Part shown: piece by piece, positions 9,107 through 46,851 of the stretch
Numbering within the stretch: position 1 is the first letter of the stretch
How the letters are laid out: the number at the start of each line of letters is the position of its first letter
Source of the DNA: Candidatus Abzuiibacterium crystallinum
GTDB lineage: Bacteria; Omnitrophota; Omnitrophia; Omnitrophales; Abzuiibacteriaceae
DNA length: 64,000 bases
Assembly (NCBI GenBank): GCA_002787155.1
Contig: PCVY01000065.1
Span: 65,286-129,285 of the forward strand
Reading direction: 5' to 3'
Notes under the pieces: model-generated
Database searches by the model: none
What the model was told of the DNA's origin: nothing
What the model saw: the letters and a program-made list of their open reading frames with translations, nothing else
Position numbers and translations under genes: made by a program

Positions 9107-9135
9107 GGGGTCAGACCCGGGAGGGTCTGACCCCT
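9107..9135. repeat. Family A palindromic element (GGGGTCAGACCC / GGGTCTGACCCC hairpin), copy 1
   Basis: GGGGTCAGACCCgggaGGGTCTGACCCC: a 12-bp stem with a 4-nt loop, directly after the nuoN stop. Confidence 0.8.
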
Positions 9136-12134: not shown

Positions 12135-12166
12135 CTGGGAGTCAGACCCTCCTGGGTCTGACTCCA
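12135..12166. repeat. Family A palindromic element, copy 2 (variant GGGAGTCAGACCC / GGGTCTGACTCC)
   Basis: cctGGGAGTCAGACCCtcctGGGTCTGACTCCacg, about 10 nt downstream of the rplS stop. Confidence 0.8.
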
Positions 12167-27260: not shown

Positions 27261-28463
27261 TTAAGCAAACAATAACTCTCTCATTCTGGTGCGGATGTGA
27301 GCAGAGCTTGCTTTCCCTTGTTCTGTTGAACGGCCGATCCAGCCGCCGCCTAAGACGATATCACCGTCGTAAAGAACGCATGCTTGACCGGGTGTAATGG
27401 CGTCTTGCGGTTCACGAAAGTTCACCTGCACATGATCATTCGAAAGAAATGAAAGCGTGGCTTCAGCTTTTTGATGCCGCGAACGAATTTTAGCTTGAAC
27501 GTGGTTAGGATTAATTTGTTCCAACGGGACAAACCAATTGATTCTTTCAACTTCACACCGTTGACTATAAACATCCTCTTTGGGACCGACAATGACCAGA
27601 TTTTCTTCGGGCAGGATATCAATCACATAAAGTGCGTGCGGATGCGCAATGTTAAGTCCTTTGCGTTGACCAATCGTAAAATGATAATAGCCTGGGTGCG
27701 TTCCTAACACGCTGCCTTCTTTGTCTCTGACTTGACCGACGTCCTCAGAAGCAGCGGCAGAAACCGCGCCCTGTTTTTCAAGAAAAGCACCGTAATCATT
27801 GCTGGGGATAAAACAAATTTCCTGCGAGTCGGGTTTATTGGCAACGCACAAGCCGATCCGGCCGGCAATTTCGCGAATCGTTTGTTTGGTATATTGACCA
27901 ACCGGCAGTTCGAGATGACTTAAGACATCTTGTGATAGCGGGAATAAAACATATGATTGGTCTTTGGCCGCATCTAACCCCTGGGAAACGACAAAATGTT
28001 GTTTGTGTTTGTCATATTTCAATTGCGCGTAATGCCCTGTTGCAATTTTGTCGTATCCAAGTTCGCGGGCTCTTTGTAAAAACAATTTAAATTTGATGTG
28101 CTCGTTACAAGCAATGCAAGGATTAGGCGTGTTTCCCTTCATATATTCATCGGTAAAGTAATCGACCACGTGGGTTTTGAATTCTTTCTCAAAATTAAAT
28201 ACGTGATAAGGAATCTCGAGGCGTTCTGCTACATCGCGCGCATCTTCAACACCAATTACCCCGCAGCACGATTTGGTATTTTTTTCTTCACAGTCGCCGC
28301 TTGCCCACGTGCGAATGGTAGCGCCGCCCACTTCCCAGCCTGCTTGCTGCAGTAAGTAAGCTGCGACTGACGAATCAACGCCTCCGCTCATGGCAACCAA
28401 TATTTTCTTTTTCATAATAACAATCCTGAATCCTGGGGTCAGGTTAGGGTCTGACCCCATCAA
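27261..28463 (-). CDS. mnmA: tRNA-specific 2-thiouridylase MnmA
   Basis: PP-loop ILVAMSGGVDSSVAAYLL. The likely true start is the internal MKKKIL (near 28415). The track ORF extends into the family A repeat, translating it as GSDPNLTP. Confidence 0.85.
   Translation of the reverse strand: MMGSDPNLTPGFRIVIMKKKILVAMSGGVDSSVAAYLLQQAGWEVGGATIRTWASGDCEEKNTKSCCGVIGVEDARDVAERLEIPYHVFNFEKEFKTHVVDYFTDEYMKGNTPNPCIACNEHIKFKLFLQRARELGYDKIATGHYAQLKYDKHKQHFVVSQGLDAAKDQSYVLFPLSQDVLSHLELPVGQYTKQTIREIAGRIGLCVANKPDSQEICFIPSNDYGAFLEKQGAVSAAASEDVGQVRDKEGSVLGTHPGYYHFTIGQRKGLNIAHPHALYVIDILPEENLVIVGPKEDVYSQRCEVERINWFVPLEQINPNHVQAKIRSRHQKAEATLSFLSNDHVQVNFREPQDAITPGQACVLYDGDIVLGGGWIGRSTEQGKASSAHIRTRMRELLFA
28435..28458. 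repeat. Family A palindromic element, copy 3
   Basis: cctGGGGTCAGgttaGGGTCTGACCCC, between bioD and mnmA. Confidence 0.8.
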
Positions 28464-30766: not shown

Positions 30767-31945
30767 TTGATTTGCCGTGCGCTTCCTTTTATATATAGAC
30801 GCATGAAAACAATCAAATCGTTTCCCCAAGCGGCGTTTCAGAAGAAGCTGCTCAAATGGTATCAAACCTCAAAGCGCCCACTGCCATGGCGGCAGAAGAA
30901 AAGTGCTTATGGAACCCTGGTCTCAGAAATCATGCTCCAGCAAACGCAAATCAAAACCGTGATTCCTTATTACGGGCGCTGGCTTAAAACTTTTCCGACC
31001 ATTCAAAAACTGGCAAAAGCACCGCTTAGGAAAGTGCTTAAATTATGGGAAGGCCTGGGTTATTACTCGCGCGCTCGCAATCTTCACCGAACGGCTCAAA
31101 CAATTGACCGCCGATTCCAAGGACAAATTCCATCCGATCCGGAAATCCTGATGATGCTCCCCGGCATCGGACGCTACACAGCCGGCGCCATCGCAAGCAT
31201 TGCCTATGATCAACCGGTGCCTTTGGTAGATGGGAATGTCGCACGCGTATTTTCACGCATTTTTTTAATCAAACAAGATATTTTGAAACCGGAAACGCAG
31301 AAACTGCTTTACACGTATGCTTCCTCACTGGTTTCTTCAAAACAAGCAGGCAATTTCAATCAAGCTTTGATGGAATTAGGTGCTTTAATCTGTACACCTG
31401 CATTACCGGAGTGCTCGCTCTGCCCGGTTCGTTCCCTCTGCTGCGCTTATCAAAACGGCGTGCAAGAAACACTTCCTGTTCGATCAAAAGGTCCTCAAAA
31501 AAAGAAGGTGTTTTTGCAAGCAGCACTTCTGACACACCAAAACAAAATATTAGTTCAGGAACGTCCGGCAAAAGGTATTTGGGGTGGTTTGTGGGAGTTG
31601 CCTAACAGGCGCGTGAATGGCGAGCATGAACCCAGAAAATTTAAACGTTATTTAGAAAAACAATATCGTGTTTCTTTGGCGCCGACTTTTAAACGTTTAT
31701 CTTTAATGAAACGTGAACTCACGCATTTGTCCGTTGTGATTGAACCTTTTCAATTTCTGGTTAAAAAAACTGCTTTAAAACAAAGCGAAAAGCTGCGTTG
31801 GATATTGAAGCCTCATTTAAAATCCATTTCTTGTCCGGTCCCTTATCAGCAAATCCTTCAAAATCATTTTGAATCTAAAGTCTTGGGGTCAGACCCTGAC
31901 CTGACCCCAAGCAAAGGGTCTGACCCCGCGCAACCAAATGGATAA
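30767..31945 (+). CDS. mutY: A/G-specific adenine DNA glycosylase MutY
   Basis: HhH-GPD fold, 4Fe-4S loop CTPALPECSLCPVRSLC and a NUDIX-like C-domain. The last ~20 codons run through two family A repeats (…GSDPDLTPSKGSDPAQPNG). Confidence 0.85.
   Translation: MICRALPFIYRRMKTIKSFPQAAFQKKLLKWYQTSKRPLPWRQKKSAYGTLVSEIMLQQTQIKTVIPYYGRWLKTFPTIQKLAKAPLRKVLKLWEGLGYYSRARNLHRTAQTIDRRFQGQIPSDPEILMMLPGIGRYTAGAIASIAYDQPVPLVDGNVARVFSRIFLIKQDILKPETQKLLYTYASSLVSSKQAGNFNQALMELGALICTPALPECSLCPVRSLCCAYQNGVQETLPVRSKGPQKKKVFLQAALLTHQNKILVQERPAKGIWGGLWELPNRRVNGEHEPRKFKRYLEKQYRVSLAPTFKRLSLMKRELTHLSVVIEPFQFLVKKTALKQSEKLRWILKPHLKSISCPVPYQQILQNHFESKVLGSDPDLTPSKGSDPAQPNG
31883..31928. repeat. Family A palindromic elements, copy 4 (a full hairpin plus a half-site)
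   Basis: CTTGGGGTCAGaccctgaCTGACCCCAAG hairpin, then GGGTCTGACCCCgcgc. Located inside the 3' end of mutY and overlapping the ygfZ-like start. Confidence 0.8.
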
Positions 31946-32924: not shown

Positions 32925-32944
32925 GGGTCAGACCCCGCGCCGCG
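32924..32944. repeat. Family A element, copy 5 (GGGGTCAGACCCC followed by GCGCCGCG)
   Basis: Palindromic GGGGTCaGACCCC between the convergent ygfZ-like and giant-protein stops. Like the copy-4 half-site, it shares the GACCCCGCGC extension. Confidence 0.7.
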
Positions 32945-43179: not shown

Positions 43180-43209
43180 GGGGGCCAGACCCTAACCTGA
43201 CCCTCAGGT
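43180..43209. repeat. Family A palindromic element, copy 6 (variant)
   Basis: GGGGGCCAGACCCTAACCTGACCCTCAGG. Its reverse complement contains GGGTCAGGTTAGGGTCTG, identical to the core of copy 3. It lies downstream of cysK. Confidence 0.7.
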
Positions 43210-44263: not shown

Positions 44264-44896
44264 TTATCGCTGATTAGAATGTTCGTCAATTAATTGCTTT
44301 AACACCTTCAGATGCTCCGCCATCAGCGGTTTTTTACGCGGGTCACGCAGAATATAAGCAGGATGATAAAGGACGATTAATTGAACTTGCGGAAAATGAG
44401 GGTGCGTAAAAGGTTTACCGACCGCTTCTGCCATTCCCGTTTGCGGCTTGCCCGAAATCATGTGTTTAAGCGACGTGGCACCTAAAAGACCGATCACCGT
44501 CGGGTTTAAAAGTGCAATTTGTTTGCGGAGAAAAGGCAAACATTGATCAACTTCTTCTTGCTTGGGAGCACGGTTTTCAGGTGGACGGCATTTGATGATA
44601 TTAGCAATGAGGGTATCCTGATTCGTATCAATGCCGGCTTCCAGCATCATTTGATCCATTAACTGACCTGCGCGCCCGACAAAAGCTCTTCCTTGTTTGT
44701 CCTCATTTTCACCGGGCGCTTCACCAATCAGAAGTGTGGCAGCTTGGGAATTGCCGCGATCAATAACGATATGCTGTCTGCCCTGTGATAAAGGACATTT
44801 TTGACAGTTAGAAGCAATCAGGGCCTGTTTGAATGCCTGGTAGGTTTTAGCTTCTAAGATTTGATTGGAAGTAGAGTCAAATAAATCAAACTGCAT
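44264..44896 (-). CDS. Uracil-DNA glycosylase, family 4 (Fe-S type)
   Basis: GEAPGENED and GRAGQLMD motifs, and HPAYILR near the C-terminus. Confidence 0.8.
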   Translation of the reverse strand: MQFDLFDSTSNQILEAKTYQAFKQALIASNCQKCPLSQGRQHIVIDRGNSQAATLLIGEAPGENEDKQGRAFVGRAGQLMDQMMLEAGIDTNQDTLIANIIKCRPPENRAPKQEEVDQCLPFLRKQIALLNPTVIGLLGATSLKHMISGKPQTGMAEAVGKPFTHPHFPQVQLIVLYHPAYILRDPRKKPLMAEHLKVLKQLIDEHSNQR

Positions 44897-44904
44897 CTTT
44901 TTTT

Positions 44905-44963
44905 AAGGGGACAACTCCCTTTTTCACTTTTCCATCTTTTTCAGAAAAAGGGAGTTGTCCCCT
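44905..44963. promoter_or_regulatory. 20-bp perfect inverted repeat AAGGGGACAACTCCCTTTTT (19-nt spacer) AAAAAGGGAGTTGTCCCCTT
   Basis: Seen directly in sequence. It lies between the stop of the small basic ORF and the UDG start codon, on the same strand, with T-rich flanks and a T-rich loop. Confidence 0.55.
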
Positions 44964-44975
44964 TACCCTTCACGA

Positions 44976-45149
44976 ATTATTTCAACAAAAGGCCCTGCCT
45001 TTTCAAAGCTTTCTTAATACGTGCCACCGCTTGGATGATGCTGTTGCCTTCTGTTAAGTTGTTCCGGCAGATGGCTGCATAACCGCGCCGATTTTTAATT
45101 TTGAAAGTTTTGACTTCCCGTTTTGAAATGGAGCGTAATGTTTTTGCCA
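44976..45149 (-). CDS. Unannotated 57-aa highly basic protein (MAKTLRSISKREVKTFKIKNRRGYAAICRNNLTEGNSIIQAVARIKKALKRQGLLLK)
   Basis: ATG with a strong SD (AAAGGAGG, 5-nt spacer). 16 Lys/Arg against 2 acidic residues. Not in the ORF track because it is under 60 aa. Likely a ribosome- or nucleic-acid-associated small protein. I could not confidently match it to bS20 or bS21. Confidence 0.55.
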
Positions 45150-45180
45150 TGGCGGCCTCCTTTTTAGTTTGGAAACAGAT

Positions 45181-46296
45181 CTAATTACCGAGAATCTTTT
45201 TGGAACTTTCTCCTCCGCCGAACTGAATCCCTTTCATGCTGAGCGATAACTCATGAGGTCTGTCACTGGCACGGTACATTTCAATTTCCGAAATTAATCC
45301 TTCATTTTTTAACCCAACCAAACTTTGATTGAGGGATTGCATACCGTCAGCTGCACCGCTTTGCATCACTTGTGTGAGTTTATCTAAACGCTGTTGACGA
45401 ACCATGTCGGCTACCATTTGTGTCATCGTCAAGATTTCAAAAGCAGGCACGTAACCATGCCCCCTGGCAATCGGAACAAGACGCTGGGTAGCAATCAGGT
45501 TTAAATTGTAAGAAATATCTACCAAGACCCGTGAACGTTCATCGGGCGGGAAGAAACTCAACAAGCGTTCAAACACATGCATGATACTTCTGGCATGGAC
45601 CGTTGAAATCACCAAACGGCCGATTTCGGCAGCTGCCATGGCGCTGATAAAGGTTTCCGCATCCCGAATTTCGCCGATAAAAATGACGTCCGGTGCCTGA
45701 CGCGTCGCAAAACGAAGCGCGCTCGCAAAGCCCGGCGTATCTTGGCCGACTTCGCGCTGATTGATCAAACTCCGTTTATTCACGTGCAAAAACTCAACCG
45801 GGTCTTCAATGGTGATAATATGCTTTTCAACATTTTGGTTGATTTGATTGATCATGGCATTCGCGGTTGTGCTTTTACCAGATGAGGCGGCGCCAGCAAT
45901 TAAAATTAAGCCGCGTTCTGCCAAAGCCCATTTTTTCAAAATGGGCGGGATGCGCAATGCTTCAAACGAGGGGATTTCCCGCCAAGCTACCCGAATCACA
46001 CAACTTAGTTGCCCTTGTTGATAAAAAAGATTGGCGCGCAAGCGCCCATGGCCTTCGATGGCAAATGACAAATCAACGCTTTTATCATGTTCTAATTGAT
46101 TCTTGTGATGCGCCTGCATTAAAAATTCTGCGATGCGGGTCATTTCTTCGTGCGTGGTTGTGTTGAGACCTTCAAACAAACGCAATTGGTTGGCCGAACG
46201 GAAGCAGGGCTTGGCATCTGTTTTAAGATACAAATCCGTCCCCTTATGGGTTTCCATATAATCCAAGCATTTCTTCAAATAATCATGCGCATTCAT
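45181..46296 (-). CDS. PilT/PilU-family hexameric ATPase (second paralog, atypical P-loop)
   Basis: Walker A GAASSGKST, Asp box ITIEDPVEF, Walker B VIFIGEIRD and His box LVISTVHA. It lacks the PilT-specific AIRNLIRE motif. Confidence 0.7.
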   Translation of the reverse strand: MNAHDYLKKCLDYMETHKGTDLYLKTDAKPCFRSANQLRLFEGLNTTTHEEMTRIAEFLMQAHHKNQLEHDKSVDLSFAIEGHGRLRANLFYQQGQLSCVIRVAWREIPSFEALRIPPILKKWALAERGLILIAGAASSGKSTTANAMINQINQNVEKHIITIEDPVEFLHVNKRSLINQREVGQDTPGFASALRFATRQAPDVIFIGEIRDAETFISAMAAAEIGRLVISTVHARSIMHVFERLLSFFPPDERSRVLVDISYNLNLIATQRLVPIARGHGYVPAFEILTMTQMVADMVRQQRLDKLTQVMQSGAADGMQSLNQSLVGLKNEGLISEIEMYRASDRPHELSLSMKGIQFGGGESSKKILGN

Positions 46297-46326: not shown

Positions 46327-46560
46327 TTAAATTTCATAATCTGTGGGCTCTTCTTTTATCAAGCCGAACTTAATTCGATTCCAAATACGTTCGTGAACAA
46401 AATAGCCAAAGATCTTTGCGAGCGAATCTATGATACCAATGGTAGCGGAAAGTTTAAGTTCGCCCGTTACTATGAAGACCACGCCAAAAGTAAAAAGCGT
46501 GCCCATCGCTCTGTATGTAATGGCTTTGACAATGCTTCGTTTGTGCGTTTCGATAACCAC
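46327..46560 (-). CDS. DUF2061-family small membrane protein
   Basis: 77 aa with a KAITYR…TG motif and two TM helices. Confidence 0.5.
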   Translation of the reverse strand: MVIETHKRSIVKAITYRAMGTLFTFGVVFIVTGELKLSATIGIIDSLAKIFGYFVHERIWNRIKFGLIKEEPTDYEI

Positions 46561-46590
46561 GGGTTTTCTTTCCTATATACAACGTCACTT

Positions 46591-46851
46591 TTAGGAGATT
46601 CCTAACTTTTTATCCAACTGGCCGGATTCATCCAGCGCTTGTAACTCTTGAAATCCGCCGACAAAATCATCACCAATAAAAATTTGAGGCACGGTTTGGT
46701 GATTGGTTTTCTTAATCACAGCCGTCAAGGCAGAAGGATCCTTTGATGCGTTAATCTCCTCGAAAGCAACTTGTTTGTCTTCTAGAAGACGTTTAGCGGC
46801 TTGGCAGTACGGACAATAGTCTTTTGTATAAATTGTAACTTTAGGCATCAT
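46591..46851 (-). CDS. grxC: Glutaredoxin (Grx3-type)
   Basis: CPYC active site (YTKDYCPYCQAAK) and a TVPQIFI…GG glutathione-binding region. Confidence 0.85.
   Translation of the reverse strand: MMPKVTIYTKDYCPYCQAAKRLLEDKQVAFEEINASKDPSALTAVIKKTNHQTVPQIFIGDDFVGGFQELQALDESGQLDKKLGIS

Follow-up and report, generated by a model that had tools for sequence, protein, structure and literature searches.

A small basic protein conserved in Candidatus Omnitrophota shares a short motif with the HU proteins of the phylum and is followed, in one species, by a perfect palindrome

In the HU and IHF proteins (the DNABII family, PF00216), a basic strand leads into the DNA-binding arm and contributes, where that arm begins, a conserved arginine that contacts DNA. 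Among elements that act on RNA, the repetitive extragenic palindromic (REP) hairpins between malE and malF of E. coli, the ribonuclease III (RNase III) sites of T7 early mRNA and the inverted repeats of plastid 3’ untranslated regions (3’ UTRs) stabilise the upstream message or serve as RNase III sites. Here we describe a locus that recalls both systems. It lies in a window of 64,000 nucleotides (nt), the whole stretch of DNA that was analysed (positions 65,286 to 129,285 of contig PCVY01000065.1), from Candidatus Abzuiibacterium crystallinum. This organism belongs to the Omnitrophota, which are little-studied, very small and probably predatory or parasitic bacteria. A gene for a small basic protein of 57 amino acids (aa) occupies window positions 44977..45150 of the minus strand, stop codon included. 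It is followed by a perfect 62-nt palindrome (44904..44965, a feature without strand) and then by the gene for a family-4 uracil-DNA glycosylase (UDG).

The 57-codon open reading frame (ORF) is a real, conserved gene under purifying selection. Defined from the ORF listing and translation, its homologues and their alignment, it opens with an ATG at 45150-45148. The 5-nt spacer CCGCC separates this codon from a Shine-Dalgarno sequence, AAAGGAGG, read directly at 45156..45163 of the minus strand, and a strong Shine-Dalgarno (AAGGAGG or GGAGG) also precedes the gene in most family members of other genomes. The 57-mer has 183 homologues at E <= 0.01, mostly 57-72 aa long, and every organism name supplied by the source is Omnitrophota. 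An exhaustive profile search of 1.84 billion representatives returned only 40 clusters and no distant relatives from other families, and a scan of one genome per GTDB species found 84 loci, nearly all labelled Omnitrophota. The reading frame is intact in 83 of the 83 loci analysed. With codon-position entropies of 0.88, 0.68 and 1.57 bits, variability at the third position is roughly double that at the other two; family dN is 0.19-0.36 with dS saturated. The alignment has an invariant core (F16-K-I-K-N-R-R-G23, A25, N31-L-T-E-G35, R44, R51 and G53), which can be written as the pattern FKIKNRRGYA..NLTEG..R(M)xKAxKRxG. The family is uncharacterised and essentially confined to Candidatus Omnitrophota. 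That the frame arose by chance, the region being merely a long spacer between the upstream PilT-type gene and the UDG gene, might be suspected from its shortness and from its being uncalled in the GenBank record. The conserved family, the purifying selection and the unbroken frame at every locus refute this, homologues have been called in some metagenome-assembled genome (MAG) annotations at NCBI, and we regard a chance frame as having a negligible probability.

The first-pass annotation of this DNA had described an unannotated 57-aa basic ORF with a strong ribosome-binding site, and its account of the gene stands: the translation is exactly as it gave it, the AAAGGAGG-N5-ATG arrangement is present, and lysine and arginine make up 16 of the 57 residues (28%), which with only two acidic residues gives a net charge of +14. 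It was also right that the ORF was off the track through a 60-aa cut-off, as 57 codons fall below the default of the lister, and the in-frame conservation in relatives that it had proposed as a check is found at all 83 loci analysed. The GenBank annotation of this species also appears to lack the gene, since the exact 57-mer is present only in JGI, Logan and ENA records, with no NCBI source, and the UDG and PilT proteins on either side, whose exact matches point to Candidatus Abzuiibacterium crystallinum as the source, are numbered consecutively at NCBI (PIQ85554 and PIQ85555). Where homologues are called in NCBI MAG annotations they appear as hypothetical proteins. Length filters, in other words, drop a conserved gene family from some MAG annotations.

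Searches of Pfam, NCBIfam, PHROG, PADLOC and the PDB gave no meaningful match for the family. By profile and pairwise comparison, the family does appear to share a short, statistically supported motif with the HU proteins of its own phylum. The Omnitrophota HU/IHF-beta proteins are canonical 90-aa proteins, which we retrieved by searching with the HU-like half of a hybrid sequence, P0134, described below. They read ...ELRNFGVFKVKNRRGRxGRNPRTG..., with KVKNRRG as the commonest variant (39 of 116), and KIKNRRG is found in 114 of 117 members of the small-protein family. Comparison of the family profile with the Omnitrophota HU profile by hhalign gave a probability of 68% (E = 4.7e-5, 13 columns). 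Against the C-terminal half of HU the probability was 77% with a score of 28.4, and none of 200 column-shuffled profiles reached that score (null 10.1 +/- 2.2). FKIKNRRG conforms to the basic-strand pattern of HU (F-x-V-[KR]-x-R-x-x-R), with hhalign E = 4.7e-5 and 2e-5. Pairwise methods agree: BLASTP aligned the window protein with P0168 at 33% identity across 51 residues (E = 4e-4), and Smith-Waterman scores of the family against Omnitrophota HU averaged 43, versus 25 +/- 4 for shuffles (p ~0.001). Besides the basic strand FK[IV]KNRRG, the two kinds of protein have in common that both are small and basic and that 42 residues separate the strand from the C-terminus in each.

An AlphaFold2 model of the window protein (pLDDT 91.9) places strands at residues 6-8, 14-17, 24-28 and 31-35, then a helix at 38-51 and a further strand at 54-56, and in it the residues shared with HU make up a short basic hairpin. 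Since the strand at the base of the HU arm is shared, and since the same residues form a basic hairpin in the model, we infer that the small protein binds nucleic acid, most likely DNA. It is possible, moreover, that the family originated from the DNA-binding half of HU, or exchanged sequence with it, which is a statement about origin and not a demonstrated membership. A fusion of the two kinds of sequence is seen in P0134 (L100:163-441). This 92-aa protein matches Pfam Bac_DNA_binding over residues 1-59 (E = 1e-15) and the family core over residues 45-90, with hhalign probabilities of 98% for the N-terminal half of HU and 99.4% for the family core. The two are fused in register through the common stretch NFGVFKVKNRR.

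As we picture it, the protein, compactly folded and the product of a gene of housekeeping type, would contact DNA through a basic beta-hairpin made of the strand FKIK, the tip NRRG and the strand YAAIC. The sequence of this hairpin corresponds to the strand that leads into the DNA-binding arm of Omnitrophota HU/IHF-beta (FGVFKVKNRRGRxGRNPRTG). The family would have been derived from the DNA-binding half of HU, or have swapped a segment with it, a new helix taking the place of the long arm, and the protein would work as a small nucleoid-associated DNA binder. Our preferred explanation of the whole locus, that the small protein is a DNA binder of the nucleoid type and the palindrome a separate, recent insertion that acts on RNA, is one we hold tentatively and at somewhat less than even confidence. 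A bolder version has the HU/IHF gene of the phylum cut down to its DNA-binding half, a “half-HU” refolded into a new strand-and-helix fold that kept the basic strand, and so a new nucleoid-associated class that would function beside canonical HU in these ultra-small cells. We consider this version improbable. Should the small protein prove to be a DNA binder descended from the arm half of HU, Omnitrophota would have a chromatin component specific to their phylum, and the protein would exemplify a new fold growing from a fragment of an old one.

A number of results count against a link with HU and a nucleoid role. Classical HU profiles gave no signal against the family, and the Smith-Waterman scores of classical HUs (E. 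coli, Bacillus and Thermotoga) are at chance level. The similarity to HU is confident over only about 13 residues, the tails past the motif are not significantly alike (p = 0.19), and the predicted fold of the window protein is not that of HU. Pfam Bac_DNA_binding (PF00216) is matched by none of 37 family members. The N-terminal half of HU, with its helical dimerisation body, is absent, as the 57 residues start about 13 residues before the common strand. The arm tip GRNPxTG and the return strand are absent too: the family reads (C)xNNLTEG (RNNLTEG in place of GRNPxTG), and a predicted helix of 14 residues takes the place of the HU return strand. Among the sequences retrieved there is no hybrid besides P0134, which lies on a single 537-nt contig and for this reason may be an assembly chimera rather than a true recombinant. 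Structural comparison of the model with Foldseek yielded nothing significant in the PDB (best E = 0.2), and in BFVD only small uncharacterised phage proteins (TM 0.6-0.69, E >= 0.087). The genomic context offers no functional hint either: across 83 loci there is no conserved gene neighbourhood, the commonest neighbour family occurring at 13, and no HU gene linked to the family gene was found in the window or in the loci.

Alternatively, the protein could be a lineage-specific ribosomal, ribosome-associated or other RNA-binding protein instead of a DNA binder. Lineage-specific small ribosomal proteins are known from other phyla, and the family has much of their character in its small size, its charge, its strong Shine-Dalgarno, its single copy per locus and its strong conservation, in a gene that stands alone among varied housekeeping genes. 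The first-pass annotation had likewise seen a resemblance to a small ribosomal or nucleic-acid-binding protein, with no confident match to bS20 or bS21. The nucleic-acid-binding look holds; a ribosomal identity is not supported. Size and charge are indeed similar to those of bS21 (PF01165) and bS20, and the helix at 38-53 weakly resembles the first helix of bS21, onto which hhalign put residues 34-54, yet with a probability of only 0.35% against E. coli bS21. Of 37 family members a single one gives a match to Pfam Ribosomal_S21, with E = 0.011 and below the cutoff, and the window protein gives none; NCBIfam gave no match of any kind even at E up to 10. For bS20 the hhalign probability is 0.22%, with no Pfam or NCBIfam match. 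The five strands and one helix of the AlphaFold2 model are at odds with the helical fold of bS21, and this compact, confident, globular model differs from extended or helical small ribosomal proteins in general. No family member reaches the cutoff of any ribosomal-protein model, so that the confident placement in a known ribosomal family which the first-pass annotation had held would make the ORF ordinary did not occur. A PDB profile search gave no ribosomal chain other than bL17 at E = 3.5, and Foldseek against the PDB gave none. Linkage to translation genes is limited to the tryptophanyl-tRNA synthetase gene at 5 of 83 loci, and the motif occurs in only some 84 to 158 species representatives of GTDB, apparently a portion of the phylum and not the whole. 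The literature on ribosomal or small proteins of Omnitrophota contained nothing relevant that we could find. On balance we think a ribosomal or RNA-binding role unlikely and prefer the DNA-binding one.

Three further observations touch on the proteins compared here. Sso7d/Sul7d, AP2/ERF and the arm-binding domain of lambda integrase each pack a short beta-sheet on one helix, and by eye they resemble the model in having three to four short antiparallel strands followed by a helix, with basic residues in the sheet. This lead failed and was dropped: hhalign probabilities were 0.14% for AP2/ERF and 0.03% for the integrase domain, and none of these proteins is among the top Foldseek PDB matches of the model. 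Separately, the HU gene of Omnitrophota sits in a conserved block of its own (loci L101-L104), which runs from DNA polymerase III alpha (DnaE) through HU, a cold-shock-domain protein (CspA) and an RsmE-type methyltransferase and ends with a radical-SAM enzyme of the MiaB/RimO-like kind. The representatives search also returned two extended family members, P0150 and P0151, with the common C-terminus ...EKALRRKTKRTK. In P0151 the family core is preceded by a fused segment that matches a YgjP-like metallopeptidase domain over its first ~47 residues (Pfam E = 2.6e-7), and this may be another fusion or a mis-assembly.

The palindrome occupies most of the 80 nt between the small ORF and the UDG gene. 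Its arms (44904-44925 and 44944-44965) are 22 nt each and 100% complementary, and they enclose an 18-nt loop (44926-44943). The first-pass annotation had reported a perfect repeat 3’ of the ORF, which is right, with arms of 20 bp, which is 2 nt too short. It had placed the repeat in the leader of the UDG gene, and it does lie there, beginning 11 nt past the stop codon of the small ORF and ending 7 nt before the UDG ATG. Its calculated folding energy is -38 to -39.5 kcal/mol, with z-scores of -6.7 for the minus and -9.2 for the plus strand; none of 200 shuffles was as stable, and no other hairpin between genes of the window is as stable. The palindrome is single copy in the window (0 matches expected by chance). 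No second copy was found in the fetched loci either, and a metagenome scan, in which the source genome was not included, gave five unrelated matches at chance level. The outermost nucleotides read TA...TA. The 5’ arm as transcribed contains a mini-hairpin of its own (44945..44964, minus strand), with the 7-bp stem and loop AAGGGGA-CAAC-UCCCUUU, a stability of -6.8 kcal/mol and a terminal U5, so that it resembles a weak intrinsic terminator; a terminator scan flagged its mirror-image copy on the plus strand. In the folded mRNA, UDG positions -25 to -9 are fully paired (probability unpaired 0.01), positions -8 to +12 are mostly unpaired (0.63), and no Shine-Dalgarno is left near the UDG ATG.

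Close relatives with 72-78% protein identity (loci L012, L105 and L106) keep the order PilT, small ORF, UDG and CysK, and none of the three has the palindrome. In L012 the small ORF ends 15 nt before the UDG gene and in L106 it ends 12 nt before it. In L105 the interval is -1 nt, the stop codon of the small ORF and the start codon of UDG overlapping as TAATG (L105:253-258), a classic layout for translational coupling. With gaps of this size and no palindrome in the relatives, the 62-nt palindrome is evidently a recent, species-specific insertion in an otherwise translationally coupled junction. From the TAATG overlap, the small protein and UDG are likely to be tightly co-expressed in this clade, in a pairing that is not conserved across the phylum. 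The first-pass annotation had proposed the palindrome as a candidate element for RNA processing, stability or attenuation or as a protein-binding site, with conservation in related genomes as a check. Its absence from every close relative with the same gene order fails that check, so that a conserved element of this kind is not supported. In this one species it could nonetheless work as a stem-loop in RNA.

The palindrome, we infer, most likely serves as a stem-loop between cistrons, one that terminates or shields the upstream message and uncouples the expression of UDG. In the polycistronic mRNA the palindrome would fold into a 22-bp stem directly after the small gene. This stem would end the upstream message or protect its 3’ end, through the U-tailed mini-hairpin of the first arm or as a barrier to exonucleases, and it would be long enough to serve as a substrate of RNase III. 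At 22 bp and without mismatch it is within the range of double-stranded RNA stems, about 20 bp or more, that suits this enzyme, which may cleave it. By breaking the coupling, the stem would keep UDG synthesis below that of the small protein. Known intercistronic and 3’ UTR stem-loops resemble the palindrome in being long, stable stems of about two helical turns, placed straight after a stop codon in an operon and lacking a U tract. Unlike those of the REP type, the palindrome is single copy and has a perfect stem and an unusually large loop of 18 nt. Rfam gave no match in the window at gathering thresholds. The best sub-threshold score, for a generic hairpin, was 27.9 bits against a threshold of 55.2, and the weak matches of the palindrome, to plastid psbJ/psbA 3’ UTR stem-loops and other generic hairpins, are all far below their thresholds. 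Against a function of the hairpin, a canonical intrinsic terminator can be rejected: the loop is 18 nt long, and no U tract comes after the full stem on either strand, where A7 (minus) and ACCCTTCACG (plus) stand instead. Six same-species contigs, which come from different samples, do not differ anywhere in the region and hold no variation with which to test constraint.

The palindrome could, indeed, be selectively neutral: a recent accident that arose by inverted duplication, by a template switch that perfected a small terminator-like hairpin, or as a tiny mobile palindromic element flanked by TA, and that was tolerated as UDG could still be translated. Its absence from all close relatives and its perfect arms, which fit a young age, favour such an origin, as do the TA...TA ends and the largely unpaired UDG start. 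Each arm, moreover, is a common low-complexity mini-hairpin that is found alone in unrelated organisms. The 20-mer arm AAGGGGACAACTCCCTTTTT recurs in an unrelated high-GC soil contig (L016:147-166), within a near-perfect palindrome of ~27 bp right after a stop codon, and as a single small terminator-like hairpin in L015, L017/L019 and L018. This recurrence is probably chance for a low-complexity, terminator-like hairpin, and the palindrome itself likely originated by inverted duplication of a small hairpin. Mobility, however, is unsupported, as neither the window nor any of the fetched loci has another copy, and neutrality sits less easily with the exceptional stability of the hairpin within the window. 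It also sits less easily with what follows the gene elsewhere. A strong hairpin stands right after the family gene at 13 of 33 loci, compared with 26 of 151 control genes (Fisher p = 0.007), a hint of selection. The hairpins in other lineages are unrelated in sequence, which together with their enrichment suggests repeated, independent acquisition and is consistent with selection for a stem-loop 3’ of a small gene that is well expressed. We take a neutral accident to be a serious alternative, though less likely than not. Much less probable still, and in our view very unlikely, is that the palindrome works at the level of DNA, as a cruciform or as a protein-binding site such as an operator for the small protein itself. 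Dyad symmetry, a position beside the gene of a putative DNA-binding protein and a position just upstream of UDG would suit an operator. Against this, the protein is conserved at 83 loci and the palindrome is present in one species, with no related sequence after the gene elsewhere; a 22-bp arm and an 18-bp spacer far exceed typical operators, and no promoter-like site overlaps the palindrome. The palindrome matters less than the protein. It is a clean natural case in which a recent insertion has separated two translationally coupled genes, and it could serve to study how the stoichiometry of an operon is retuned.

The small ORF and the two genes that flank it all lie on the minus strand. The PilT-type ATPase gene (45181..46296; Pfam T2SSE, E = 2.2e-33) is 30 nt upstream, and the UDG gene (44264..44896; Pfam UDG, E = 1.7e-31) is directly downstream. 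Beyond the PilT gene, and before a gene for an alanine dehydrogenase-like protein, the window holds genes for a DUF2061 protein (77 aa) and a glutaredoxin (86 aa) at 46327-46851. The sole accession between those of PilT (PIQ85555) and the alanine dehydrogenase-like protein (PIQ85557) is PIQ85556. With a single accession for two small genes, GenBank may lack a call for one of them too, as judged by accession numbering only.

Other hairpins and repeats were seen in the same material. In an Omnitrophota single-cell genome (L055:3166-3235), a perfect stem of 12 bp (GGGGACAGGTCC) that encloses a loop of 28 nt comes after the family gene. This hairpin is similar in style to that of the window, with a long stem, a large loop and no U tract, and it has the same starting GGGGACA, but it is otherwise different. 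In the relative L042, GGGGUCAGAC lies beside the downstream hairpin of the family gene. Within the window, a short palindromic motif, GGGTCAGACCC / GGGTCTGACCC, has 15 strand-matches at <=1 mismatch where 0.36 are expected, with sites at 9108-9133, 12139-12164, 28447-28457, 31886-31926, 32925-32935 and 43182-43192, mostly where genes end or within hairpins between genes. The motif has the look of a REP-like repeat spread through the genome, and its sequence is unrelated to the palindrome after the small gene.
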